Source: Polyangiales bacterium (GTDB taxonomy: Bacteria > Myxococcota_A > Polyangia > Polyangiales > Ga0077539). From it: a DNA stretch of 64,000 nucleotides. Where the stretch lies: positions 1,024,001 to 1,088,000 of the forward strand of contig JBGARZ010000001.1 of the NCBI GenBank assembly GCA_044229975.1, written 5' to 3'. Below, in pieces: positions 46,394-61,952 of this stretch (the first letter of the stretch is position 1; every line of letters starts with the position of its first letter). Position numbers and translations under genes: made by a program. The notes below the pieces were generated by a model that had not been told where the DNA came from, ran no database searches, and worked only from the letters and a program-made list of their open reading frames with translations.

Positions 46394-47857
46394 TTACCCT
46401 CCCACCAGCGCCTCGTGCTCCACCTCATCGCGTGAGTCGACGCGGCGGCGGTCCGACGTTGCCGTGACGGGAGCCCGCCACGCCCCGCGGGTCCAGCGCC
46501 ACCAGAGCAGCGACGCGCCAAACGTCGTCTCGCCGACGAAGCCCAGCCAGCCGCCCACGACGCCCAGTCCGAGCTCGCGCCCGAAGAGCCACGCCGCGCA
46601 CGGGATGCACGTCCACATCGTCGCGATGCCGACCGTCGCGGCGAAGCGCACGTCCTTGGCGCCGCGCAGCGCCCCGCGCAGCACGATGTTGGCGCCGTCC
46701 AGCACCTGGAACACGGCAGCCACCACGAGCAGTCGCCGCACCGTCTCGATGAGCAGCGGGTCGTGCGTGAAGAAGCGCGCGATGAGCCCGCCTCCGAACG
46801 CGAACACCACCCCGCACGCCGCCATGAACCCGATGGCCACGGCGAGCGCCGCGCGGGTCATCCGGTCGGCCTCGTCGGCGTCGCCCCGACCGAGCGCGCG
46901 CCCGACCAGCACCGACGCCGCCTCGGACACCGCCACGCCAGGGAGAAACGACGTTCGGATGACGGCGAGCGCCACCTGATGCGCCGCCACCTCCCTCGCG
47001 CCGAGCGACCCGAGGATGGCCGTGAACACCGTGAACGCCAGCGTCTCCAGGCCGAACTGCATCCCCGTCGGGACGCCCACGGCGCACACCTTCCGCAGCG
47101 CCGTCGCGAAGCCCGGCATCGTCGGATCAGGCGACCGCGCGCGCCACGCCGCGACCCACAGCGCGGCCAGCCGCAGGGCGTTGATGCCCTCGGCGATGGC
47201 GGTCGCATAGCCCGCGCCCGCGACACCCAGACGGGGCATCCCGAAGTGCCCGTAGATGAGCACCCACGCGAGGGCCGCGTTGACGACGTTGCCCGAGAGC
47301 GTGACGCGCATGGGGGTCTGGCTGTCGCCCACGCCCTGCCGCCACTGAACCATCGCCGCGAGCAGACAGGTGAGCGGCGCCAGCGTGGTGCGCGCGGCCA
47401 TGAACGAACGCGCGTACGGCACCATCGCCGGGTCGACGTGCAGCGCCCGCAGCGCCCAGGTGATGTCGCGTCCGAAGACGAACACCGCCGCGCCCGCGAG
47501 CACCGCGAGGGCCGCCCCGGCGCGGGCGTACGCGAGGCTGTGTTGGGGGTGAGCCTCGCCGAGGGCGTGCGAGGCGCAGACCTTCACGCCGCGCATGACG
47601 CCGAAGACGATGGCGTAGTTGAGCCACGTCAGCACGGTGGCGACGCCGACGCCGCCGAGCGCGTTGGCGCCGAGTCCGCCGACGAGGGCGGTGTCGACGA
47701 GGCCCATGGCCGTGTCGCCGAGGAGAGCGACCGCGATGGGCCAGGCGAGGTGGACGACCTCGCGGTGGGCGTCCGAGCGGACGACCTCCAGCGAGTGGCG
47801 TCTCAAGCGATGAAGGAGCTGCACGACCGACCGTCTCTTCCAGTGACCACCGACCAT
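46394..47857 (-). CDS. MATE family efflux transporter (start uncertain)
   Basis: LAWPI, GLVDTALVGGLG, QGVGDSQTPM, LGVAGAGYAT, AAHQV, LRGAKD. Confidence 0.92.
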   Translation of the reverse strand: MVGGHWKRRSVVQLLHRLRRHSLEVVRSDAHREVVHLAWPIAVALLGDTAMGLVDTALVGGLGANALGGVGVATVLTWLNYAIVFGVMRGVKVCASHALGEAHPQHSLAYARAGAALAVLAGAAVFVFGRDITWALRALHVDPAMVPYARSFMAARTTLAPLTCLLAAMVQWRQGVGDSQTPMRVTLSGNVVNAALAWVLIYGHFGMPRLGVAGAGYATAIAEGINALRLAALWVAAWRARSPDPTMPGFATALRKVCAVGVPTGMQFGLETLAFTVFTAILGSLGAREVAAHQVALAVIRTSFLPGVAVSEAASVLVGRALGRGDADEADRMTRAALAVAIGFMAACGVVFAFGGGLIARFFTHDPLLIETVRRLLVVAAVFQVLDGANIVLRGALRGAKDVRFAATVGIATMWTCIPCAAWLFGRELGLGVVGGWLGFVGETTFGASLLWWRWTRGAWRAPVTATSDRRRVDSRDEVEHEALVGG

Positions 47858-48068
47858 CCCTCGGTTGAGAGGGTCGCGTGGGTCACTGGTACGACGGCCC
47901 TCTCCTGCTAGCGGACTCCCTTGATGGCGAAGTCGGCCGTGAGCACGCAGCTCGGACGGCACGTCGACATCGGGGAGTGGGTGCAGGGGAAAATCATGAG
48001 CACCACGGGTAGCGCGTTGGTCGATCGCCGGTCAAGCGCGCGGCTGCGTTAGTGTGCGCGCCATCCCC

Positions 48069-50699
48069 ATGAAGACCACGCGATGGATGGGCCCGGTGGT
48101 GTTGGCGGCGCTCGTGGGCGCGTGCGCTCCCGACGACGGAACAGTCACCCCGGTGAAGGACGCCGGCACCTTCGACGCGGGCACGCGCGACGTTGTGTCG
48201 GACCTCACGACGGACATCACCATCGACCGCGGCGTCTCGAAGATGGACGTACCTTCGGACCGCGGCGCGATGACCGATGGCGGTGCGGCGGAGGTGTTCA
48301 CGCCCGAGTGCCGCGCGACGGCCGACTGCCCCGCCGGGCGCCTCTGTCGCATGGACCGCTGCGTCGAGATGACGACCACCTGCACGAGCGCGGCAGGGTG
48401 TCCCAACGACATGCGCTGCGAGGGCGGTCGCTGCGTCGCGTGGGCGAGCGGCGGAACCGACCCCGCGTGCACGGTCGACCCGCGGCCCGGGGTGTTTGCG
48501 CCAGCGGTCCAGTGCCAGTTCGACGAGGCGCCGGCGGGTGATGCGTTCCCCGAGCACCTGCACGTCCTGTCGACGCCGATGGTGGCCGACCTGCGGGTGT
48601 ACTCGTCGCCGACGATCGGCGTGCGGCCGTCCATCGTGGTGGTGTTCGATGACGGCGGCGACGGGAGCTCGGAGCTTCCCTCGGGGCTCATCCGCATCCT
48701 CGACGGCCGCACCTGTCAGTTGCAGGACAACCTGAGCGACCAGATGGTGTCGCACTCCTCGCCGCCCGCCATCGGCGACCTCGACGGCGACGGGACGCCC
48801 GAGATCGTGGCCTTCAAGGCAGGCGGCGGGCTGGTGGCATTTCGGTATGTGCGCACGGTCGACGCGGGTCGCTGGAGCGTGTGGTGGCGCTCGACGACCG
48901 ACGACGGGATGGCCTTCAATCCCACCGGCGGCGGATGGGCGGGGCCGACCATCGTGGACATCGACGGCGACGGTCGACCAGAGGTGCTGCGCCACGGGAT
49001 GGTGTTCAACGGACGCACGGGCGTGCTGGTCGGAGGACAGGGCGTGCGCACGCAGCTCGCGGGCTACTCGGCGGGGGCGTTTAGCGTGGTGCTGGACGTC
49101 GACGAGGACGGCGCGGTCGAGCTCATCACGGGCAACGGCGTGTTCGGCTGGGACGCGACGATGCGGGAGTGGGTTCGCGAGACGTACTTCACGCGGAGCA
49201 ACTGCGCGGGCGCGGGCTGCGGCGACGGCCAGGTGGCGGTCGGCGACTTCGGCGACTTCGCGACGGCGCGCTTTCCCGATGGGCACATCCCGGAGATCGC
49301 GGTGGTGTCGTCGGGCTACGTGCGGGTGGACACGATCGAGGGGCGCACGGTGTTTGGTCCGGTGGCGCTGCCGGGCGGCGGGACGGGCGGTCCGCCGACG
49401 GTGGCGGACTTCGACGGCGACGGCCTCGCGGAGGTCGCGGCGGCCGGGGCGACGGCGTACTCGGTGATGGACCCGGACTGCGGTCCGCGCACCGTGTCGC
49501 GCCCGGAGGGTCGCTGCGAGACGATGACGACGACGGGCGTGTTGTGGTCGCGGCCATCGCAGGACTCGAGCTCCAACGTCACGGGGAGCACGTCCTTCGA
49601 CTTCGAGGGCGATGGGCGCGTCGAGGCCGTGTACGCCGACGAGTGCTTCGCGCGGGTGTACGACGGCGCGACGGGCACGGTGCTCTTCTCGCAGCAGCAC
49701 TCGTCGTGCACCTGGTACGAAAACCCCGTGGTGGCCGACGTCGACGGCGACTTCCGGGCCGAGCTCGTGGTGGGCAGCAACTTCAACTGCGGATCACCCA
49801 CGACGGGCATCGCGTGTCCGGGCGTGGGGCCGCGCGGGGTGGACGTTCAGTTCGCGGGGCTGCGGTGCTCCAACAACTCCGAGTGCCCGTCCAACGCGTG
49901 CGTGATGGGCTTCTGCCGCTGCACCATGGACAGCGAGTGCTGCCCCGGAAGCGCGCCCGCAGGCGACGCCGGCGTAGACGACGGCGGCGCGGACGATGGT
50001 GGGACGGACGCGGGCGTGGCGATGGATGCGGGCGGCGACGCAGGCCGCACGACGGGCTCGGGGAGCGAGTGCACGTACGTGTGCGCGGAGCCACCGGAGG
50101 GGACGGCGGGAGCGGGCAACACGTGCCGCGCGGTGCGTCCGCGAGGCGTGCGCGGGGTGCGTGTGTACGCGGACATCGCCGACCGCTGGGTTCGGTCGCG
50201 AACGATCTGGAACCAGCACGCCTACAACGTGACCAACGTCGAGGACGACGCGCGGGTGCTCGCGAGCGGGGTGGTGCGTCGCAACTGGCGGGTGCCCGGG
50301 CTCAACAACTTCCGCACGAACGTGCAGGGCACCGCGGAGATCACGAGCTCACCGGACGGAACGGTCTCGGGCACGGGCTTCGTGTGTCAGCCGTCGGGCG
50401 CGGCGCGCATGCAGGTGCGAGCGTGCAACCGTGGGACGGCGCCGATGGCGGACGGGCTGTCGGTGGGCTTCTACCGCGGCGACGGCGTGACGATGGGCGC
50501 GCGGGTGTGCCGCGCAGAGACGCCAAGAGCGTTGCTGCCGGGCGAGTGCGCGGACGTGACGTGCGACTGGCCGACGCCGCCGCTCGACCGCGCGGAGCCG
50601 GTGACGGTGGTGATCGACGACGCGCGGGCGCGCACCGAGTGCCATGAGGAGAACAACCTCGGGCTCATCGAGGACGTGATCTGCCGAGGGCCCGGCTGA
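48069..50699 (+). CDS. Lipoprotein with Cys-rich modules, FG-GAP/VCBS beta-propeller and C-terminal CARDB-like domain
   Basis: Lipobox VGAC; DLDGDGTPE, DFDGDGLAE, DFEGDG repeats; WNQHAY; C-terminal ECHEENN. Confidence 0.85.
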   Translation: MKTTRWMGPVVLAALVGACAPDDGTVTPVKDAGTFDAGTRDVVSDLTTDITIDRGVSKMDVPSDRGAMTDGGAAEVFTPECRATADCPAGRLCRMDRCVEMTTTCTSAAGCPNDMRCEGGRCVAWASGGTDPACTVDPRPGVFAPAVQCQFDEAPAGDAFPEHLHVLSTPMVADLRVYSSPTIGVRPSIVVVFDDGGDGSSELPSGLIRILDGRTCQLQDNLSDQMVSHSSPPAIGDLDGDGTPEIVAFKAGGGLVAFRYVRTVDAGRWSVWWRSTTDDGMAFNPTGGGWAGPTIVDIDGDGRPEVLRHGMVFNGRTGVLVGGQGVRTQLAGYSAGAFSVVLDVDEDGAVELITGNGVFGWDATMREWVRETYFTRSNCAGAGCGDGQVAVGDFGDFATARFPDGHIPEIAVVSSGYVRVDTIEGRTVFGPVALPGGGTGGPPTVADFDGDGLAEVAAAGATAYSVMDPDCGPRTVSRPEGRCETMTTTGVLWSRPSQDSSSNVTGSTSFDFEGDGRVEAVYADECFARVYDGATGTVLFSQQHSSCTWYENPVVADVDGDFRAELVVGSNFNCGSPTTGIACPGVGPRGVDVQFAGLRCSNNSECPSNACVMGFCRCTMDSECCPGSAPAGDAGVDDGGADDGGTDAGVAMDAGGDAGRTTGSGSECTYVCAEPPEGTAGAGNTCRAVRPRGVRGVRVYADIADRWVRSRTIWNQHAYNVTNVEDDARVLASGVVRRNWRVPGLNNFRTNVQGTAEITSSPDGTVSGTGFVCQPSGAARMQVRACNRGTAPMADGLSVGFYRGDGVTMGARVCRAETPRALLPGECADVTCDWPTPPLDRAEPVTVVIDDARARTECHEENNLGLIEDVICRGPG

Positions 50700-50773: not shown

Positions 50774-50847
50774 CGGGGCGTAGCGCAGCCTGGTAGCGCA
50801 CCTGGTTCGGGACCAGGGAGTCGGAGGTTCAAATCCTCTCGCCCCGA
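50774..50847 (+). tRNA. tRNA-Pro, anticodon CGG; CCA not encoded
   Basis: Acceptor CGGGGCG/CGCCCCG; D arm GCGC..GCGC; anticodon arm CCTGG-TTCGGGA-CCAGG; T arm GGAGG-TTCAAAT-CCTCT. Confidence 0.96.
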
Positions 50848-50854
50848 CGGAAGC

Positions 50855-50893: not shown

Positions 50894-51793
50894 CTATGGG
50901 GCATCGGGGTGCAGGCGCGCGTGGCCGGGATCAAACGCGGAGTCGGTCCTCCGTCGGCTCCGCGCGAGCGCCGCCAGCGCAGGGAGCGCGACCGCCACGA
51001 GCAGCAGCCAGGGCCAGTCTTGCGCGAGCGACACGTGCACCCCGAACAGCCGCGGCAGCTCTCGGAGGAGGAGGAGCTCGGCCATCACCAGGACCAGCCA
51101 CGCGAAGCCGCGGCGCAATGCGTCGGGCGAGACGCTCCCCGCGAGCCGACTCCCGACGACGCTGCCCAGCGCGGCGGCGGCCACGACCGGCAGGGCGACG
51201 CCCCAGGGGATGGACACCCCGCCGAGGTGACCCGCGAAGCCTGCGAGGCCGTTCATCGCGATCACGAGCAGTGAGGTGCCGACGGCCACGGTCATGGGCA
51301 TGCGCGCCACGAGCACGAGCGCCGGCACGACGAGGAAGCCGCCGCCCGCCCCGACGAGACCCGTGAGCGCCCCCACCACGACGCCGAGCGGCGCGAGCGC
51401 ACCGAGCGGGAGCGCGGCGGACGACGGGTCGGCTGACGCGCGCCGCGGCCTCATCATGGCGACGGCGGTGACGAGCATCGCGGCCCCGAAGGCGACGACC
51501 AGGACGTCGGGTGACAGGTGGGCCGACGCGCGTCCGCCGACAAAGGCCCCGGCCATGCTCGCGATGCCGAAGAGGGCACCCGCGCGCCAGCGAACCCGCC
51601 CAGCGCGCGCATGCGGCACGAGCGAGAGCGCGCTCGTCGTGCCCACCACGAGCAGCGACGACGCGATGGCCTGATCGGGCGGCAGCCGAAACACATAGAG
51701 AAGGATCGGCACCGTCAGGATCGAGCCACCTCCGCCCAGGAGACCGAGCGCCACGCCGACCGCCACCGCCAACACCACGCCGAGCACGAACAT
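50894..51793 (-). CDS. TSUP / TauE-SafE family sulfur-compound transporter
   Basis: [44 protein letters not shown] before ATG 51793. Confidence 0.92.
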
Positions 51794-51817
51794 GCGCACA
51801 CCTCGGGGCGCCGTAGA

Positions 51818-51832
51818 GCGAGCGACGTGCCA
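51818..51832 (-). promoter_or_regulatory. Putative sigma54 (-24/-12) promoter for the TSUP gene
   Basis: Minus strand TGGCAC-GTCGC-TCGC versus consensus TGGCAC-N5-TTGC. Confidence 0.6.
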
Positions 51833-51976
51833 CACGACGCTTCCTCCAGATGGCGCGTCGGACGACCCTCGCTGGACGGCGCCATGAAACGTTTCGCAAC
51901 GTCCAACGCAACGACCGCAACGAGCTCACTCGCGCTGGATCCCTCGATTTTGTGTGGCTTCCGCGTCAGGCGACCG

Positions 51977-51991
51977 AGGCACGACGATTGC
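51977..51991 (+). promoter_or_regulatory. Putative sigma54 (-24/-12) promoter for the yeeE/yedE-PDO operon
   Basis: AGGCAC-GACGA-TTGC, 50 bp upstream of ATG 52041. Confidence 0.7.
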
Positions 51992-52040
51992 GATGTCGGC
52001 CGACGACCGGCGCACCCTGCAACGCCCGGGAAGAGAGCTC

Positions 52041-52460
52041 ATGACCCTGTCTTCGGTGTGGATCCACGCGCTCCTCGGCGGCGCGCTCATCGGCACGAGC
52101 GCGTCGCTCCTGCTTGCGTTCAACGGCCGCGTCGCCGGCATCTCGGGCATCGTCGGCGGCGCGCTGCGCCCCGCCCCGGGCGACCTCGCGTGGCGGGCGC
52201 TCTTCGTCGTCGGTCTCGTGGTGGGTGGCCTCGCGGCGTACCCGATCGCGCCGGGTGCGTTTGCGGTGCCCGCGACCAACATGGCCACCGCCGTCGCGGC
52301 CGGGCTCCTCGTGGGCGTGGGCACCGGGCTGGGCAGCGGCTGCACCTCCGGCCATGGGGTGTGCGGCCTCGCGCGCCGGTCGCCTCGCTCGCTCGCGGCG
52401 ACGCTCACCTTCATCGCCGCAGGCGCCGCGACCGTGGCCCTCACCGGCGGCTCGCCGTGA
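52041..52460 (+). CDS. YeeE/YedE sulfur-transport family protein, first half
   Basis: GGALIG, GRVAGISG, GSGCTSGHGVCG. Confidence 0.9.
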   Translation: MTLSSVWIHALLGGALIGTSASLLLAFNGRVAGISGIVGGALRPAPGDLAWRALFVVGLVVGGLAAYPIAPGAFAVPATNMATAVAAGLLVGVGTGLGSGCTSGHGVCGLARRSPRSLAATLTFIAAGAATVALTGGSP

Positions 52461-52891
52461 GCGCCACCACCACGACGCGACGCCTCGGCCTCGGAGCGAC
52501 CGCGCTCGTCGCCGGGGGCCTCTTCGGCTTCGGCCTCGCGCTCGCGGGCATGACGCGACCCGAGCGGGTGCGCGGCTTCCTCGACTTCAGCGTGCGCTGG
52601 GACCCGACGCTGGTGCTGGTGCTGGGCGCGGCGCTCGCCGTCCACGCGGCGGCGTATCGCCTCGTCGCGCGGCGCGCGGCGCCGGTGTTCGCGGGCAGCT
52701 TCTCGCTCCCGACCCGGCGCGACCTCGACCTCCGTCTGCTGGGCGGCGCCGCGATCTTCGGCGTCGGCTGGGGCCTCGGCGGCTTCTGCCCGGGGCCCGC
52801 GATCGTCTCGCTCGTCGGAGGTCACGGGGCGACCGTGGCCTTCGTCCTCGCGATGATCGGCGGCCTCGCGCTCGCGACCCCGCGCCGTTGA
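52457..52891 (+). CDS. YeeE/YedE sulfur-transport family protein, second half
   Basis: GTGA overlap; FGFGLALAGM, WDPTL, FGVGWGLGGFCPGP. Confidence 0.9.
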   Translation: MSATTTTRRLGLGATALVAGGLFGFGLALAGMTRPERVRGFLDFSVRWDPTLVLVLGAALAVHAAAYRLVARRAAPVFAGSFSLPTRRDLDLRLLGGAAIFGVGWGLGGFCPGPAIVSLVGGHGATVAFVLAMIGGLALATPRR

Positions 52892-52940
52892 CGCGATCAT
52901 CCCCTCGTTGGCGCCACGCACCTCGCAAAGGAGACCTGCC

Positions 52941-54017
52941 ATGTTGTTTCGACAGTTGTTCGACCCCGAGACCTCGACCTGGTCGTATCTGCTCGCTGAC
53001 GAGACGACCCGCGAGGCCGTGCTCATCGACCCGGTGCTGGAGCAGGTCGAGCGCGACCTCCAGCTCCTGCGCGAGCTCGACCTCACGCTCCGCTGGGCGC
53101 TCGACACCCACGTCCACGCCGACCACGTCACCGGCCTCGGCGCGCTGCGCGCCCACACAGGTTGTCAGACCGTGCTCTCGGAGCGCGCAGGCACCGGGTG
53201 GGCCGACCGCCTCGTGAAGCAGGGCGACCGCGTGGCCTTTGGCGACCGCTTCCTGGAGGTGCGCGAGACGCCCGGGCACACCGACGGCTGCGTCACGTAC
53301 GTGACCGACGACCACGCGATGGCCTTCACGGGTGACGCGCTGCTCATCCGCGGCTGCGGCCGCACCGACTTCCAGCAGGGCGACGCGGCGGCCCTCTACG
53401 CCTCGGTGCACGCCCAGGTGCTGTCGCTGCCCGACCAGACGCTCGTGTACCCGGGTCACGACTACAAGGGCCGAACCGCCTCGACGGTCGGCGAGGAGAA
53501 GCGCTGGAACCCGCGGCTCGGCGCCGGGCGCACGTCGGCGGAGTTCGTGGCGATCATGGCGGGGCTCCAGCTCGCGTACCCGAAGCGCATCGACGTGGCG
53601 CTGCCGCTCAATCTTCGGTGCGGCGTCCCGCGGGGATTGCCCGTCAGCGGGGAAGCGCCCGCGGCCCCGCGGTGGGCGCCCGTGGAGGTCAGCGCCGCCG
53701 ACGTTCCCGAGGTCACCTGCGAGTGGCTCGCCGCCCACACCGACGCGGGGCGACTCGTGGACGTCCGCGAGCCCGAGGAGTTTCGCGGCGAGCTCGGTCA
53801 CGTCGACGGAGCGGCGCTCGTCCCGCTGGCCACCGTGACCGACGAGGCCGCCCGGTGGGACCGCGCGGCGCCGGTGCTCCTCGTCTGCCGCTCGGGCGGG
53901 CGCTCGGGCAAGGCCGCGCTCGCCCTCCAGGCGATGGGCTTCGCGAAGGTCGCCTCCCTCCGCGGCGGCATGATCGCCTGGAACGCCCTGCGTCTCCCCG
54001 TCACCCGCGACGCCTGA
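52941..54017 (+). CDS. Persulfide dioxygenase (ETHE1-like MBL fold) fused to a rhodanese domain
   Basis: FRQLFD, THVHADH, TPGHT, FTGDALLIRGCGRTDF, YPGHDY; DVREPEEF and active-site CRSGGRS. Confidence 0.93.
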   Translation: MLFRQLFDPETSTWSYLLADETTREAVLIDPVLEQVERDLQLLRELDLTLRWALDTHVHADHVTGLGALRAHTGCQTVLSERAGTGWADRLVKQGDRVAFGDRFLEVRETPGHTDGCVTYVTDDHAMAFTGDALLIRGCGRTDFQQGDAAALYASVHAQVLSLPDQTLVYPGHDYKGRTASTVGEEKRWNPRLGAGRTSAEFVAIMAGLQLAYPKRIDVALPLNLRCGVPRGLPVSGEAPAAPRWAPVEVSAADVPEVTCEWLAAHTDAGRLVDVREPEEFRGELGHVDGAALVPLATVTDEAARWDRAAPVLLVCRSGGRSGKAALALQAMGFAKVASLRGGMIAWNALRLPVTRDA

Positions 54018-54029
54018 CAGGCACAGCCT

Positions 54030-55385
<1,356 letters not shown>

Positions 55386-55593
55386 CGCCCCTCTTCTCGC
55401 AGGGATGCGCCGCGTTGGAAACCACCACATGCACGCCCGCGGCGAAGCGCCCGGCGCGTCGCGCTCACCAACAATCGTCCGACGGGAGGGCGAGCGTCGA
55501 AGGGTTTCGCCGCGAGCGGTCATCCAGGTCTCCGAGCAGGGCGACGACCCGCGTCGGCCATCGCCCTATCCCCCATTTCGAAGGAGACGTTTC

Positions 55594-56397
55594 ATGGTCG
55601 GTCTTGCCGCGCTCGCCCTCGCGTGGACGCACAGCCTCGCCCTCACCGTGACGCCACCGGGCGGCGCGGTCGGCGGCCTTTCGCGACCCGTCCCCGAAGT
55701 GTCGCTGCGCGTCGATCGCCTCGGGCTCGACCGACCGCCCGGCGGCTGGCGCCCCTTCGTCGCGCAGAACGCCACGGCCTCCGGCGCGACGCCGACCGAG
55801 AGCTCCGCGGACACCCCGTCGCCCGCCACGACCTGCGACCTCGACTGCGAGACCGCCCAGGAGGACGCGCGCCTCGCTCGCTACGTGCAGCGCCGCCGCG
55901 CCCGGCTCCTGCGCACCCACCGCGCCTTCGCCATCGCCGCGTGGAGCACGATGCTCGTCACGGAGGTGCTCGGGACCATCCAGGCCGTCAACCAGCCCAC
56001 GTGGTTTGGCGACGGCGCCTGCTCGCACGACCCCGAAGCCTTCGGCTGCCACCAGTCGTCGCTGCTCACCGGCCTGCACGAGACCTTCGCGTTCACGACC
56101 ACGGCGCTCTACACGACCGCGGGCATCCTGGCCGTGGCCGCCCCCGACCCCGACAACGCCGCCGAGGGCGACGGCCGCGCCCCACGAACGCTCCGCCTCC
56201 ACAAGACCCTGGCGTGGGTGCACGGCGCCGGGATGATCCTGCTGCCGCTGCTTGGTGTGATCACCGCCCACCCGCAGATCGTCGGCGTCTCGCCCTCGGC
56301 GCAGGCGGACTTCGGTCGCGCGATGCGCACCGTCCACGCCGGCGTCGGCTTCGTGACCTTCGCCGCGCTCTCGGTCTCGGCCTACCTGGAGCTGTAG
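55594..56397 (+). CDS. Exported membrane protein with four His-bearing TM helices (cytochrome b561-like, tentative)
   Basis: AAGGAG RBS; LRTHRAF, GLHETFAF, RLHKTLAWVH, TVHAGVGF each at the start of a hydrophobic helix. Confidence 0.55.
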   Translation: MVGLAALALAWTHSLALTVTPPGGAVGGLSRPVPEVSLRVDRLGLDRPPGGWRPFVAQNATASGATPTESSADTPSPATTCDLDCETAQEDARLARYVQRRRARLLRTHRAFAIAAWSTMLVTEVLGTIQAVNQPTWFGDGACSHDPEAFGCHQSSLLTGLHETFAFTTTALYTTAGILAVAAPDPDNAAEGDGRAPRTLRLHKTLAWVHGAGMILLPLLGVITAHPQIVGVSPSAQADFGRAMRTVHAGVGFVTFAALSVSAYLEL

Positions 56398-56403
56398 CGC
56401 GTC

Positions 56404-57135
56404 GTGACGACCCGCAGGCGCTACCCCGTCGTGCTCGCCGCCGCGCTCTCGCTCGCGTCGACGCCCGCCCGCGCTCACCCCGACGGCCGCGAGGTGGGCC
56501 GCTCGGCCGTCGGCTGTGGACGCGTCGGCAACTGCCACGGCGCCAGCCCCGGCGCGACCGCGACGCTCACCGGACCGGACACCCTGCTCCCCGGCGGACG
56601 CGCGACCTTCACGCTCGTCGTGCGCTCGACGAGCCCCGCGTTCACGGGCGGCGGCGTCGACGTGGGCGTGCGCGGGCCCGCGGGCACCTCGCTCGTCGCG
56701 ACGCAGGCCAACACGCGCGTCAACGCCGGAGACCTCGTGATGAACAACCGCCTGGCCGCCGAAGGCGGCGCCGTCACGGTCACCTTCGACGTCGTGGCCC
56801 CGACCGCGGGCGCGGTGACCCTCACGGCCGCGGGCAACGCCACCGACGGCACCGGCAACACCGGCGACGCCTGGGCGCTCACCGCCCACACCCTCGCCGT
56901 GGGCGACGTCGCGGCGGCGGACGCAGGCAACGCCCCGGATGCCTCGATGATCGGCACCGACAGCGGCCCGGCCGTCGACGGCGGCCCGCCGGGACCCGAA
57001 GCGTATGACCCGACGGTCTCCTACGGCTACGGCGGCTGCTCGGTGGGCGGGCGTCGAGCGACGACCATGCGGTGGGCGTGGTTCGCGGCGCTCGCGTGGT
57101 GGGCGCGACGTCGACGCGAGGGACGCGATGCGTAG
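56404..57135 (+). CDS. Secreted Reeler-like beta protein with CX5CH motif and MYXO-CTERM-like sorting tail
   Basis: Signal peptide ARA-H; GCGRVGNCHG; AAGNATDG.G..GD; GGCSVG..WAWFAALAWWARRRR. Confidence 0.65.
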   Translation: MTTRRRYPVVLAAALSLASTPARAHPDGREVGRSAVGCGRVGNCHGASPGATATLTGPDTLLPGGRATFTLVVRSTSPAFTGGGVDVGVRGPAGTSLVATQANTRVNAGDLVMNNRLAAEGGAVTVTFDVVAPTAGAVTLTAAGNATDGTGNTGDAWALTAHTLAVGDVAAADAGNAPDASMIGTDSGPAVDGGPPGPEAYDPTVSYGYGGCSVGGRRATTMRWAWFAALAWWARRRREGRDA

Positions 57136-57673
57136 CGGCGTGGCGGGCGCGTTCTTCGCCGCGGTGGTCGCGTCGTGCGGAGGTGAGGCTCCGCCGTTGC
57201 CGTCGGTGGACGTCGCCGAGGGCGACCGGGGCCCGGTCTGCCTGAGCGGACGCTACTGGCCCTTCGGCGACCGCGGAGACAACCACATGCACCCGGGGCG
57301 TGACTGCGTCGGCTGCCACGCGCGCAGCGGCGACGCCCCGGCCTTCGCGGTCGCCGGAACGCTCTACAGCGCGCCCCACGAAGCCGACGAGTGCTTCGGC
57401 TACGACAGCGACGTGGCCGCCGGGCTCGGCGCCGAGGTCGAGCTCGTCGACGCCACCGGCGCGCGCTTCACCGTCGTCGCCAACCGCGCGGGGAACTTCT
57501 ACACCACCCACCCGCTCGCGTTTCCGTTGCAGCGCGTGCGCGTCTACGCCCCCGACGGCGCCTTCCGCGAGATGGGGAGCCCCGCCCCCCACGGCGACTG
57601 CAACGCCTGCCACACGCGCCTCGGTACCGTCTCCGCGCTGGGCGACTCGCCCGGGCGCCTGGTGGTGCCGTGA
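57128..57673 (+). CDS. Di-haem c-type cytochrome lipoprotein
   Basis: Lipobox VASC; MHPGRDCVGCH and GDCNACH. Confidence 0.8.
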   Translation: MRSGVAGAFFAAVVASCGGEAPPLPSVDVAEGDRGPVCLSGRYWPFGDRGDNHMHPGRDCVGCHARSGDAPAFAVAGTLYSAPHEADECFGYDSDVAAGLGAEVELVDATGARFTVVANRAGNFYTTHPLAFPLQRVRVYAPDGAFREMGSPAPHGDCNACHTRLGTVSALGDSPGRLVVP

Positions 57674-57707
57674 CGCCGCTCACACCCACCTGAGGAGGAC
57701 GGAGTCC

Positions 57708-58367
57708 ATGCACCGAAAGCCCCATCTGCTTCGCCTGTCGTTGCTCGCCGTCTGTGCCGGCGCGAGCTGTGCCCCCGACGTCGTCGGCTACCGCCCCGCG
57801 CGCGACGCGGGCGCCACCGTCGACGCGCCCGCGACCCCGATCGACGTCGGCTCCGACGTCGCGACGGTCGTCGATGCGCCCGAGGCGGACGTCTCGTCGC
57901 CCGCCGACACACCGCCGCCGTCGCCGTGCACCTCGGGCATCCACTGGACCCGCGGCAACCGCGGCAGCACGCAGATGAACCCCGGCCAGGCCTGTGTGGC
58001 GTGCCACGTCCGGATGCGCGCCGACGGGCCGACGCTGGTGGGCGGAACGGCCTACGGCGACGACGGCCAGGAGGACAACTGCTACGGCTTCCCGGGCACC
58101 ACGGGGGCGGCGTACGTCGAGGCCACCGACGCGGCGGGCTTCGCCATTCGCATGGCCATCAACCAGGCCGGCAACTTCTACTACAGCGGCCGCACCGCGC
58201 TGCGCTTCCCGCTGCACGGCGTCGCCGTGGTGGGCCCGGGCGGCCTGCGCAACGAGATGGACGACGACGCCCCCAACGGCGACTGCAACGGCTGTCACAC
58301 CGTCACCGGCACGTCGACGGTGGCGGGCTTCGACCCGGCGCCCGGCCGCATCCTCGTTCCGCGGTGA
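57708..58367 (+). CDS. Di-haem c-type cytochrome lipoprotein (paralogue of the preceding gene)
   Basis: GAGGAGG/GGAG RBS; lipobox GASC; MNPGQACVACH and GDCNGCH; shared N.AGNFY and PGR motifs. Confidence 0.8.
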   Translation: MHRKPHLLRLSLLAVCAGASCAPDVVGYRPARDAGATVDAPATPIDVGSDVATVVDAPEADVSSPADTPPPSPCTSGIHWTRGNRGSTQMNPGQACVACHVRMRADGPTLVGGTAYGDDGQEDNCYGFPGTTGAAYVEATDAAGFAIRMAINQAGNFYYSGRTALRFPLHGVAVVGPGGLRNEMDDDAPNGDCNGCHTVTGTSTVAGFDPAPGRILVPR

Positions 58368-58370
58368 CGG

Positions 58371-59060
58371 CTACTCGATCTCGATGGTCACGCTCCGCAC
58401 GATCTCCGTGCGCAGCGAGGACCCCGCCGCGAACTCCCGCAACGACGTCGTCGTCGACCGCCGGAGTCGCACGGCCTGCGCGCCCGTCGCCGCCCCGAAG
58501 GCGCCCGGCGGGAGGTCGACCGCGCCGTTATCCGGGACGGTTCGCGTCGGCTCGGGCGACACGATCGTCGCGTCCGCTCCGCCCGCAGGTGACCACCGGA
58601 CATCGATGTCGGCGCCGCGCGCGATGCGCTGGCCGCGGGTCGGCTGGACGATGGCGTGCGCCGCCAGCGCCGCGAGGGGCACGGTGCGGGTGACGCCGTC
58701 GGCGCGCACGAGCAGCGCGAGGGTGCTCCGGTAATCGTCGAAGGTGGCGGTGTAGCGACCGCCGCCCGCCGCCGTGACCACCACATCGCGCTCTCCGCCG
58801 GTGATCGACACCTCCGCCGTCGCGGGCGCGCCGTCGGCCGTCAGCGTCGCGCTCACCGTCAGCATGAGCTCCGCCCGCGCGGCGTCCCGATCGGTGACCA
58901 TGACCACCACCTGGAGCGAGAGCTCCGCTCGCGCGGCCTCGTCGCGCGGCCCATCCGTCGCGGCGTCGGTGGTCGGCTCGCGGGCGACGATCGCGTCACG
59001 CACGCAGCCCGGCGCGGCCACCAGCACGAGCCCGAGCACCGCCCTCGCGCCGCGGCTCAA
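58371..59060 (-). CDS. Hypothetical lipoprotein at the end of the ECF operon
   Basis: TTG start overlaps the upstream stop; lipobox-like APGC. Confidence 0.65.
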   Translation of the reverse strand: MSRGARAVLGLVLVAAPGCVRDAIVAREPTTDAATDGPRDEAARAELSLQVVVMVTDRDAARAELMLTVSATLTADGAPATAEVSITGGERDVVVTAAGGGRYTATFDDYRSTLALLVRADGVTRTVPLAALAAHAIVQPTRGQRIARGADIDVRWSPAGGADATIVSPEPTRTVPDNGAVDLPPGAFGAATGAQAVRLRRSTTTSLREFAAGSSLRTEIVRSVTIEIE

Positions 59061-59743
59061 GGACCTTCCCCCCGCTGCGCGCGCACCTGGGCGGAGTAGA
59101 TCCCGTGCGGGTGTCGCGCGAGGAACCGATCGGCCTCACGGGTCACCACCGCGGGCGAGGCGCCCAGGGTGCTGGCGCGAAACGTCAGGTAGTCGCGCTC
59201 CTCCGCGAGGGCCGACTGCGGGAAGCGTCGCGCGTGGTCGTGGAGCGTCGTCGCCGCGAGCGCCGCGTCGCCGCTGGCCAGCGCGGCGCGAGCGCGTTCG
59301 AGCGGCGCCGACTCCGCGGCCGGATCGACCGACGCGTGCTCGTGGACGGAGGCGTCGTGGTGCGCCGCGTGGTGCGCCGCGGTCGCGACGGGCGCCGCGA
59401 TGGCGGCCGAGGGGACGACCGCAGGCGCGGCGGTCGTCGCGGTGGGCACCGGCCCGACGCGGGCGACGGGCGTCCGGTGCGTCGGCGGTCGACGCGATCG
59501 CACGACGGCGACGGAGGTGCCCGCGACCACGGCCAGCGCCGCGAGGAACTTCACCACCGTCGCCGCCTTCCACGCCGTGACGCCCGCCGCCTTCGTGAGG
59601 GCCACGCGGGTGAGCGCCGAGGCCGACGCCGCGCGCACCGCCTCGGGCAGCGGGGGCGGCGCGCCGCGCGCCTGCTGGAGCAACGCGCGGACGTGGTCCG
59701 GGGCGCCGCCGCCGGGGTCACGCCATCGGGCCGGGTCTTTCAT
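59057..59743 (-). CDS. Putative transmembrane anti-sigma factor with C-terminal TPR-like motif
   Basis: Coupled to the ECF sigma (ATGA); TM helix; LERARAALASGD..RFPQSALAEER, FLARHP. Confidence 0.75.
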   Translation of the reverse strand: MKDPARWRDPGGGAPDHVRALLQQARGAPPPLPEAVRAASASALTRVALTKAAGVTAWKAATVVKFLAALAVVAGTSVAVVRSRRPPTHRTPVARVGPVPTATTAAPAVVPSAAIAAPVATAAHHAAHHDASVHEHASVDPAAESAPLERARAALASGDAALAATTLHDHARRFPQSALAEERDYLTFRASTLGASPAVVTREADRFLARHPHGIYSAQVRAQRGEGP

Positions 59744-60291
59744 CGGCTGCCTCCCTTCGTCGGATGTTGGAGCGCGGCGAGGCCCTCGGCGAAGGCCGCC
59801 CGCGCCGCGTGCAGGCGAGAATAGACCGTCCCCACGGGGACGCCGATCATCGTCGCGATCTCGGGGCAGGTCATCTCCTCCAGCTCGAACATCACGAACA
59901 CCGCCCGCTTGTCGGCGTCCAGCGCGTCGAGGGCGCGGTTCACGAGGGCGCGGGCCTGCGCGGCCGCGGCAGCGTCCTCGGGCGATCGCCCGCCGCCGAC
60001 GGGCGCCTCGGGGACCGTCTCGACGGCCTCTTCGGGGTGCCGTCGTCGGTGCCGGCGCCACGTCGACACCACGCGCAGGCAGATGCCGTAGAGCCACGTC
60101 GTCAGGAGGCTGGAGCCGTCGAAGGAGTCGAGCCGACGGTGCACCACCAGGAAGACCTCCTGGAGCAGGTCGGGGCGGTCGTCGTCGGGCACCCCCATGC
60201 GGTGCAGCGTCGACCACACGAAGCCGGCCTGTGCAGCGTGGATCGCCTCCACGTCGAGCGGCGCGTGGGCGCGGTCGGGCGCGTCGCTCAT
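59740..60291 (-). CDS. ECF RNA polymerase sigma factor
   Basis: DLLQEVFLVV, TWLYGI, VFVMFELEEM..EIA..GVPVGTVYSRLH. Confidence 0.93.
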   Translation of the reverse strand: MSDAPDRAHAPLDVEAIHAAQAGFVWSTLHRMGVPDDDRPDLLQEVFLVVHRRLDSFDGSSLLTTWLYGICLRVVSTWRRHRRRHPEEAVETVPEAPVGGGRSPEDAAAAAQARALVNRALDALDADKRAVFVMFELEEMTCPEIATMIGVPVGTVYSRLHAARAAFAEGLAALQHPTKGGSR

Positions 60292-60388
60292 GTCGCGGCG
60301 CGGACCGAGCGCGCGCGCGCCGAGGACGTTGGGAGGGAGTGCGAGCCACGCCATGACGGGCGGTGGATGACCGCGCGCGAAGGATCCT

Positions 60389-61438
60389 TCACCGCAACCG
60401 CACGCCCAGCGTCAGATCGCCTTCGAAGGCCAGCGGGGTCGGCTCGAACGAGGGCTCCCGGCGCCCCTCGATGCGCGCGGCCCAGCCGAGCACCGGGACC
60501 ACGCCCCGCGCCTGGAGGCCGAGCGCCAGGTAGCGCCCGAGCGCGATGTGCACGTGCCCGTCGAACCACAGCCCCGCCCAGAAGCGATCACCCGGGTCGA
60601 CCGGCTGGAGCGAGAGCGCCGCCAGGTGCACCGCGCCCCCCATCGCGCCTGCGCAGAGCCCCATCCTCCACGGACCGGGCGACCAGTCGTGGCAGGCGCC
60701 CACGCGCGCGAAGGTGCGCCCGACGCCGACGACGCCGTCGTCGGTGCGGTGGGACGGGACGAGCAGCGCGCCCACCTGCACGCCCCAGCGACGCGAGAGC
60801 GCGACGTCCAGCGAGAGCCCCACGGCCACCGACGGCGACGGGTCGAGGCCGTACGAGCTGCCACCCGAGACCCGCAGCCACAGCGGCAGGACGGGCGGCG
60901 CGGGCGGCAGGCGCGGCGGCGGCGGGCTCGCGGGCGGCGGGGTCGGCGCGGGACATGCCGCGCAGGCCGGGCACTCGACGACCGGGCACACGGGCGCCGG
61001 GGTCGCGGGCGGGGGCACAGGCGGAGGTGGCGGTCGCAGCGCCGCGTCGGGGTCGATGAGCAGCACCACCGCGAGCGCGACGGCGTCGGCCAGGCCCTCG
61101 CAGGTCGGGCCCGGCTGCGCGATGGTCCGTACCGCGTCGCGCTCGCCGGTCTCGCGCAGCACGAGGCGCGCGGTGCGACGGGCCCGACCGCCTGCGTCGA
61201 AGCGGACGACGATGCGTCGCGAGGACGCCTCGTCGAAGCCCTCGCGCCCGAGGCGCCGCCGCACCTCCGCCGTCAGCGCCCCGGAGTCGGGGCAGTCGTC
61301 GGGGCCGCCGTCGAGCACCCGCAGCGACGCGGTTCGCGGGACCTGGGCAACGGCGTCGCGGGCGAACACGGCGAGGGCGACCGTCACGGCGAGGGTGAGA
61401 CGAAAGACCCCGGCGGCGCGATCGATCCCCTGCTGCAT
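60389..61438 (-). CDS. Exported protein, ECF-associated, with probable C-terminal beta-barrel
   Basis: Signal peptide; CP...C..LADAVALAVVLLIDP; Pro-rich linker; amphipathic strands ending LGVRLR. Confidence 0.7.
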   Translation of the reverse strand: MQQGIDRAAGVFRLTLAVTVALAVFARDAVAQVPRTASLRVLDGGPDDCPDSGALTAEVRRRLGREGFDEASSRRIVVRFDAGGRARRTARLVLRETGERDAVRTIAQPGPTCEGLADAVALAVVLLIDPDAALRPPPPPVPPPATPAPVCPVVECPACAACPAPTPPPASPPPPRLPPAPPVLPLWLRVSGGSSYGLDPSPSVAVGLSLDVALSRRWGVQVGALLVPSHRTDDGVVGVGRTFARVGACHDWSPGPWRMGLCAGAMGGAVHLAALSLQPVDPGDRFWAGLWFDGHVHIALGRYLALGLQARGVVPVLGWAARIEGRREPSFEPTPLAFEGDLTLGVRLR

Positions 61439-61628: not shown

Positions 61629-61952
61629 ATGCGATCAACCCTCCTGCTCCTCGGCGCCCTCCTCGCAGGATGCGGCGGCGGGTCCGGCTCGACCTGCCCG
61701 ACGACCAGCACCCTCACGTACGACAACTTCGGTCGGCAGTTTTTCGCCAGCTACTGCGACCGCTGCCACGCGGCCGGCGAGCGACCGTCACTCTCCACGC
61801 TCGCGGAGATCCGCGCCCAGTCCACGGCCATCGACGTCGAGTCCGCCGCGGGGCCCAACGCCGTCAACACCGCGATGCCCGAGAGCGGCACGGCGCCCAC
61901 CGAGGCCGAGCGCCGCCAACTCGGCGAGTGGCTCGCCTGCGGCGCGCGGTAG
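61629..61952 (+). CDS. Small mono-haem cytochrome c lipoprotein
   Basis: Lipobox LAGC; YCDRCH; AMP distal Met; ER..L.EWL.CGA. Confidence 0.82.
   Translation: MRSTLLLLGALLAGCGGGSGSTCPTTSTLTYDNFGRQFFASYCDRCHAAGERPSLSTLAEIRAQSTAIDVESAAGPNAVNTAMPESGTAPTEAERRQLGEWLACGAR

Follow-up and report, generated by a model that had tools for sequence, protein, structure and literature searches.

A conserved four-gene operon of a Polyangiales bacterium and its candidate role in envelope electron transfer

We analysed a 64,000-nucleotide stretch of DNA (the window) from a Polyangiales bacterium (GCA_044229975.1, contig JBGARZ010000001.1, positions 1,024,001 to 1,088,000), whose genome is about 10 Mb and 93% complete. 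Four genes on its plus strand form a real, conserved operon that is apparently undescribed as an envelope haem module. Gene 1 (55594–56397, 267 aa) encodes a b561-like protein, gene 2 (56404–57135, 243 aa, GTG start) a choice-of-anchor V protein, and genes 3 (57128–57673, 181 aa) and 4 (57708–58367, 219 aa) predicted di-haem c lipoproteins of two types, A and B. Our leading reading, to which we give slightly less than an even chance, is that the operon encodes an electron relay running outward through the envelope, with an oxidant or a metal ion at the surface as its final acceptor. Close homologues carry the source labels Polyangiales, Myxococcaceae or Deltaproteobacteria, in keeping with a myxobacterial host.

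Operon layout and conservation

Spacing re-measured from the open reading frames is 6 bp between genes 1 and 2, −8 bp between 2 and 3 and 34 bp between 3 and 4, which bears out the tight packing reported in a preliminary description of this DNA. The GC content of third codon positions is 0.92–0.94 across the four genes, and purine-rich stretches resembling ribosome-binding sites lie upstream of genes 1, 3 and 4. Scanning of 55200–58600 gave no sigma-70 promoter match and no terminator match, and comparison upstream of four operon copies gave no convincing common motif. Within the source genome gene 1 has one paralogue, while genes 2 to 4 have none except that 3 and 4 are paralogues of each other.

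Linkage was surveyed in 31 genomes of the family, with gene-2 orthologues called at E ≤ 2e-37. Such an orthologue is present in 13 genomes, spread over 3 of 10 genera. A di-haem gene follows it in 12 of the 13, the thirteenth locus stopping at a contig edge, and gene 1 adjoins it in 11 (in G121 as a contig-end fragment); the two loci that miss gene 1 (G016 and G133) are cut at contig ends. The co-occurrence that the preliminary description had expected elsewhere is thus found. The cluster takes two orders, 1-2-3-(4) and 2-3-4-1, and gene 3 is the paralogue retained in its three-gene and two-gene versions. Genes 1 and 3 are also paired without gene 2, as a second pair in G065, G145 and G072 and also in loci L286 and L288, and 29 metagenome loci hold four clusters with gene 2 and two without it. 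Genes 2 and 3 are fused in frame in two protein records (P0186 and P0201, 83% identical to each other); the fusion rests on these records, its DNA not having been recovered among the 29 metagenome loci. Apparent frameshifts or truncations of single operon genes, from either assembly error or decay, occur in some relatives: gene 2 in L002/L061 (G065), gene 4 in L062 (G407), and a further case in L275. In one genus (g2; L066, L067, L068, L006) the operon is divergent from a flavoprotein gene, which we take to be soluble-transhydrogenase-like, followed by a VgrG-like gene.

Gene 1 also stands alone in 113 of 151 genomes of the order, a tally that takes in the unpublished genome G123, on which no other claim rests. 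It is mostly single-copy across the order, including genomes of 2.7–4 Mb, and cytochrome neighbours are absent; frequent neighbours are a gene that is presumably HMG-CoA-lyase-like and another that we take to be thrS. Near-universal in the order, the lone copy carries no annotation. A search of the phylum found gene 1 in at least 38 of 301 genomes, a lower bound since nine candidates were scored per genome. In a tree of 49 gene-1 cores the operon copies nest inside the family clade (support 97/98), and 9 of 10 cluster with the paired copies, though weakly supported (80/85); this agrees with a duplication by which the lone gene may have given rise to the operon gene, a single origin not being proven. 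The paralogue in the source genome (contig C11, 290483–291337, L035) is 63% identical to gene 1, holds C-x2-C-x3-C-x2-C in its linker and adjoins the HMG-CoA-lyase-like gene and thrS.

The encoded proteins

The gene 1 product comprises an N-terminal hydrophobic leader, a low-complexity linker of about 70 residues and a four-helix core at about residues 87–267. It had been described as a four-helix membrane protein with a His opening each helix, and H109, H162, H203 and H248 (H1 to H4) do stand at predicted helix starts; the leader, the linker and a fifth conserved His, H210, are additions to that description. Hydropathy peaks at the helices are 1.45–1.81, and an AlphaFold2 model (predicted local distance difference test, pLDDT, 97) has four long helices in a bundle. 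Cys pairs lie in the linker (C81/C85) and in the first loop (C143/C152). All five His are unchanged in 56 of 56 close relatives, each is retained in 109–136 of 140 wider relatives, and the four core His are present in all eight relatives that are linked to YceI genes (see below).

This arrangement satisfies the b561 layout, with His near helix starts and H1/H3 and H2/H4 on opposite faces. Eukaryotic b561 proteins have small residues at H1+7 and H4+4 (PMC10691727); among gene-1 relatives these positions are T, A or S in 137 of 138 and G or A in 138 of 140, respectively. The haem ligands of Dcytb include H50 and H159 (PMC6123691), and the ends of the aligned range place H109 on H50 and H248 on H159, provided no gap intervenes, a comparison that covers H1 and H4 only. 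No PF01292 or PF03188 match is found in gene 1 at the Pfam gathering cut-off; sub-threshold PF01292 matches occur in 49 of the 140 relatives at E ≤ 0.05, and the best values among relatives are 3.5e-6 for PF01292 and 3.3e-5 for PF03188. These matches and the register with Dcytb bear out the proposed resemblance to b561. Because the score stays under the gathering cut-off, we call the predicted protein b561-like and do not file it as a cytochrome b561 family member. By analogy with that family, haem b would be held by the pairs H109/H203 and H162/H248. Foldseek with the gene-1 model gave no match at E ≤ 0.001, a PDB sequence search found no relative, and Pfam and NCBIfam scans found no DOMON match in any of the four operon proteins.

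Genes 3 and 4 had been described as paralogous lipoproteins with two CxxCH motifs and conserved Met residues, and this holds: they are 43% identical across 149 residues, and the two CxxCH and the two Met are unchanged in all 39 aligned relatives. The same four elements are found in all of the best 120 of 1188 matches, a set biased towards conservation. Since these residues are invariant among relatives, the motifs are not chance occurrences. Gene 3 has a lipobox-like Cys17, C60-x2-C63-H64, C158-x2-C161-H162, M54, M149 and a C38/C89 pair; gene 4 has a lipobox-like Cys, C96-x2-C99-H100, C193-x2-C196-H197, M90, M184 and a linker of about 50 residues rich in Pro, Ala and Asp. Both are exported CxxCH proteins and the source genome carries Ccm machinery genes (CcmF- and CcmC-like), as expected of c-type cytochromes. 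A transthyretin-like core probably underlies both, and they are likely di-haem c lipoproteins with His/Met ligation, in which, as family knowledge suggests, each CxxCH would bind haem c and a Met would be the sixth ligand. Listed matches to transthyretin-like and carboxypeptidase-regulatory sandwiches include no cytochrome of this layout, and genes 3 and 4 differ from transthyretin-like domains in the two CxxCH and two Met that flank the sandwich. Foldseek with the gene-3 model (pLDDT 89) gave no match at E ≤ 0.001, and PDB sequence searches with genes 3 and 4 found no solved relative. Influenza haemagglutinin rows in PDB searches with the operon proteins (E ≥ 0.0017, about 53 columns) were judged chance. 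The di-haem domain also occurs in tandem (two or three copies) or after up to four mono-haem domains (P0098, P0099, P0100, P0101, P0154, P0217); because such forms occur, we regard the predicted domain as a modular building block.

Gene 2 has a signal peptide, the CX5CH motif reported earlier (C38-x5-C44-H45), M113 at a His/Met column, and a MYXO-CTERM-like tail of Cys, hydrophobic and Arg segments with C212. It passes the NCBIfam choice-of-anchor V model NF041895 (73.5 bits, cut-off 42) and fails the MXAN_6652 equivalog NF041894 (74.7 bits, cut-off 200). Its domain-linker-tail layout is that of the NF041895/MXAN_6652 proteins; it departs from the MXAN_6652 family in having CX5CH for CxxCH and Met for His, and in its score of 74.7 against 200 bits. 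Among 72 relatives Cys-His is kept in 70, the first-Cys spacing is 2 (canonical CxxCH) in 28, 4 in 10 and 5 in 16, and 18 fall outside the C-x2..6-CH pattern as fragments or with shorter spacing. The M113 column holds His in 59, Met in 9 and Gln in 4; since a His/Met swap is expected of a sixth haem ligand, this column is a candidate for it, and gene 2 is likely a surface mono-haem protein. The Ccm system should be able to mature CX5CH. This motif is absent from the haem motif list in the available part of 10.1101/2024.01.05.574438, and PMC8112865 gives no information about extended CXnCH motifs.

According to the accessible part of PMC11980579, the tripartite MYXO-CTERM directs proteins to the cell surface; it consists of a Cys motif, a hydrophobic helix and an Arg-rich tail. 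Four of eight gene-2 orthologues pass TIGR03901 (MYXO-CTERM, 20 bits) and three more score 15–19 bits; gene 2 itself has no TIGR03901 match, the layout being present and the helix short. As in that family, gene 2 may be displayed at the surface through its tail. The Reeler-like label given to gene 2 earlier survives as a lead: 19 of 30 Atlas matches are clusters with PF02014 (Reeler) in 11–27% of members (neighbour scores 0.92–0.93), but PF02014 was found in none of 15 aligned gene-2-type domains and a PDB sequence search gave no relative. Capsid rows in that search were judged chance.

The word undescribed had been too strong for gene 2, whose domain has an NCBIfam name, and it stands for the system, of which we found no description in the literature (mostly open-access texts, main text). 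No paper was found on choice-of-anchor V or on MXAN_6652, the latter of which may be listed in supplementary tables of the myxosortase papers, and the portion of 10.1101/2023.06.07.544157 available to us does not mention the domain. Nor did we find a paper joining four of the terms Cyc2, YceI, Myxococc, cytochrome b561 and outer membrane.

A wider module with YceI

Outside the order, 15 distant gene-1 matches were found in Myxococcota, and six, from four families, were examined. YceI adjoins the gene-1 relative in all six loci and a mono-haem c lipoprotein in five, while L225 and L226, matches of the closer type, have no YceI within 1.5 kb. Among 71 di-haem loci surveyed with flanks of up to 8 kb, YceI is found in 11, a CxxCH porin-like gene in 11, a gene-1 relative in 8 and a choice-of-anchor V gene in 8; most loci contain none of these. 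Two of them, L082 and L094, unite a gene-1 relative, YceI and di-haem genes. The preliminary description had missed this wider association; the operon looks as if it had been elaborated, within the family, from an older module of b561, YceI and c-type lipoprotein.

A mono-haem c lipoprotein gene lying 3.3 kb downstream of the operon (61629–61952, plus strand) is a possible accessory part by homology. Its product is homologous to the mono-haem lipoproteins flanking YceI-linked gene-1 relatives, with phmmer E values of 7e-10 and 4e-6 against two open reading frames in L245 and 3e-40 against one adjoining a di-haem gene in L238; its PF13442 match (E 9e-5) is under the cut-off.

YceI also recurs in a cluster with a CxxCH porin-like gene of about 400 residues and tri-haem relatives of genes 3 and 4 (L069, L086, L090, L095, L097, L098, L113, L130), a possible undescribed porin-cytochrome module. 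The porin-like label is based on length, one Pfam match at E 0.05 and an aromatic motif at the C-terminus; we take the gene to be Cyc2-like, and two of these proteins, when scanned, fell into no NCBIfam family. A local profile did not find this family in the source genome, and the operon has no porin gene.

The proposed relay, its alternatives and known systems

In the outward relay, gene 1 would be a two-haem-b protein of the inner membrane that takes electrons from quinol or a cytoplasmic reductant and passes them to the two tethered His/Met di-haem c lipoproteins, where the extended linker of gene 4 would provide reach. These would hand them to the surface-anchored mono-haem gene-2 protein, whose haem would reduce an oxidant or metal ion outside the cell. 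We infer the donor, the physical contacts, the acceptor, the haem assignments and the direction of flow. His/Met c haems usually have a higher potential than bis-His b haems, and it is for this reason that an outward direction is preferred. The linkage, the two gene orders, the fusion records, the YceI-linked lineages, the His register, the gene-2 His/Met column and the Ccm genes all support such a relay, whose function would seem to be upkeep of the envelope's redox state or reduction of metals for their uptake, as opposed to bulk respiration. Structure prediction for a complex of two protein cores (genes 1 and 3) with four haems scored 0.00, 0.35 and 0.00 and was weighed neither way.

Gene 1 is most simply read as a protein of the inner membrane that is N-out, as CYBDOM is, but its apparent topology contains a conflict. 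The eight YceI-linked relatives all have classic-looking cleavable signal peptides, as judged by eye, and, with loops delimited by a script rule, 63 Lys and Arg residues fall on their N-terminal face against 22 on the opposite one; the means are 7.8 and 3.6, respectively, in 119 of 140 gene-1 rows. Signal peptides and basic residues would therefore share one face, and this conflict leads us to keep an outer-membrane helical haem conduit under consideration. Gene 1 would there be exported whole and, as an alpha-helical conduit with two b haems, would join the surface protein to the di-haem lipoproteins of the periplasm, the role of a cytochrome-porin in related loci. We hold this to be unlikely, if well above negligible. 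It would resolve the topology conflict and explain the absence of the porin-like gene from the source genome. It also agrees with Cys pairs on both faces in close relatives (the loop-1 Cys are present in 137 and 131 of 140, and the linker Cys count is even in 74 of the 87 sequences with linker Cys) and with a C-terminal Phe in 101 of 188. None of the 71 di-haem loci has both a porin-like gene (11) and a gene-1 relative (8), but this is close to the 1.2 expected by chance. Further, the median helix hydrophobicity of 1.4–1.6 is that of the MATE (multidrug and toxic compound extrusion) transporter of the window (1.5), and in CYBDOM proteins a signal peptide goes with an N-out orientation in an ordinary membrane (PMC10691727). 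In 188 leaders and linkers of the order, taken from rows that have a complete core and a Met start and are related to each other, a strongly hydrophobic stretch is present in 124 and a basic n-region in only 34, so that the leader may be an uncleaved anchor. The sequences being kin, these counts are not independent, and the signal peptides were judged by eye. In its boldest form, just as unlikely, this reading has gene 1 represent a family of exported outer-membrane helical di-haem b proteins that need no beta-barrel and take the position of a cytochrome-porin between a new-fold di-haem lipoprotein and a Reeler-like surface cytochrome.

Somewhat less probable is an envelope module for the binding, storage or sensing of haem or redox state with no net electron flow across the envelope, in which gene 2 may carry a metal or a disulfide in place of haem. 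The near-universal, mostly single-copy gene 1, present even in small genomes and with no cytochrome neighbours, would fit this, as would the gene-2 Cys spacing, which varies from 2 to 5 with 18 of 72 relatives outside the pattern, and the presence of choice-of-anchor V domains on many unrelated surface proteins. Yet in several families gene-1 relatives are repeatedly linked to c-type lipoproteins, which are of three kinds, the two-level His layout is typical of trans-membrane electron transfer, and none of the four proteins has a signalling domain.

Inward flow is more improbable still: here the surface haem would oxidise a reductant from outside the cell, such as Fe(II), superoxide or the quinols of prey or humic matter, and gene 1 would feed the quinone pool. 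E. coli CybB is said to pass superoxide electrons to the quinone pool and would be a parallel, but transfer from a His/Met c haem to a bis-His b haem is usually uphill.

The preliminary description had also suggested electron disposal for the adjacent sulfur module (50894–55523), which we judge not to be part of the system; it comprises genes for a TauE/SafE-like protein, two YeeE/YeeD-like halves, a metallo-beta-lactamase-rhodanese protein that is persulfide-dioxygenase-like, and a PAS sigma-54 activator, the TauE and YeeE labels being our assumption from weak NCBIfam matches. Adjacency in the source genome and the divergence of gene 1 from the activator gene are all that favours this highly improbable link. 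Synteny largely refutes it: no sulfur-module gene stands beside any other copy, and TauE-, YeeE- and dioxygenase-like homologues are absent from 31 loci, including the other operon copies, and from 29 metagenome loci. The two best sigma-54-like sites of the window, each with one mismatch (51818–51832, minus strand, and 51977–51991, plus strand), point towards the sulfur genes, with none upstream of gene 1; the pattern is rarer in the window than in shuffles (11 vs 26), so only site position is informative.

Hardly credible, finally, is gene 1 as a haem-modifying enzyme that resembles haem A synthase at half its size: the first-loop Cys pair ahead of a His, weak PF02628 matches in 10 of 140 relatives (best 5.5e-4) and a Foldseek row (6a2j, E 1.1) speak for it, but we rejected it since the genome has its own full CtaA (116.6 bits), to which hhalign aligns the gene-1 profile with a probability of 0.1, the conserved Glu-x-x-His-Arg is absent before H162, and the loop Cys are missing in all eight YceI-linked relatives.

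Around the operon and the sulfur module, a tRNA-Pro(CGG) gene just upstream of both (50774–50848, plus strand) could mark an integration point. The minus-strand genes at 58371–61438 encode an extracytoplasmic function sigma factor (59740–60354), a likely anti-sigma factor, an exported protein and a lipoprotein, a homologue of which also comes after the di-haem genes of L282. Sequence reading gives a large FG-GAP-repeat-like lipoprotein at 48054–50699 (plus strand) and the MATE-like transporter at 46394–47962 (minus strand).

The operon is best filed with b561-centred envelope redox systems. In Burkholderia, LcoA-BcnA (b561 and a YceI lipocalin) limits envelope lipid peroxidation, by a quinone mechanism that is proposed and untested in the part of PMC9113575 available. 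As there, a b561-type membrane protein is genetically tied to an exported partner, and YceI stands beside distant gene-1 relatives at six of six loci and in L082 and L094. Unlike LcoA, gene 1 falls below the PF01292 cut-off, has a leader and linker and has c-type lipoprotein partners, and the operon and family copies lack YceI, with the choice-of-anchor V protein in its place.

The preliminary parallel with FRRS1 was overstated, since in proteins of that type the haem used is that of DOMON, and no function is known for their Reeler domain (PMC10691727). With Dcytb and CYBDOM proteins (SDR2/FRRS1, Reeler-DOMON-b561) gene 1 shares a four-helix core, H1 to H4 at helix starts and matching end registers. 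Further likenesses are small residues at both H1+7 and H4+4, a beta-sandwich on the exoplasmic side as predicted haem partner and a candidate Reeler-like module. The system differs from this group in having no DOMON, separate genes, c-type partners, only four core helices, the extra H210 and the loop Cys pair, at an identity of 13%. The porin-cytochrome conduits MtrCAB and Cyc2 also combine an inner-membrane donor, periplasmic or lipid-anchored c haems and surface haem; the operon departs from them in having no beta-barrel, two haems per lipoprotein, predicted His/Met and not bis-His ligation, and few haems.

The operon brings together three unstudied types of predicted haem protein: an order-wide b561-like family, a di-haem cytochrome on a transthyretin-like scaffold with more than 1000 relatives and no solved structure, and a choice-of-anchor V protein that is likely a surface cytochrome. 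It extends the b561-YceI theme by c-type relays. Were gene 1 to lie in the outer membrane, it would represent a new way of wiring that membrane. The operon offers a small, expressible system for studying how myxobacteria handle redox chemistry at their surface.

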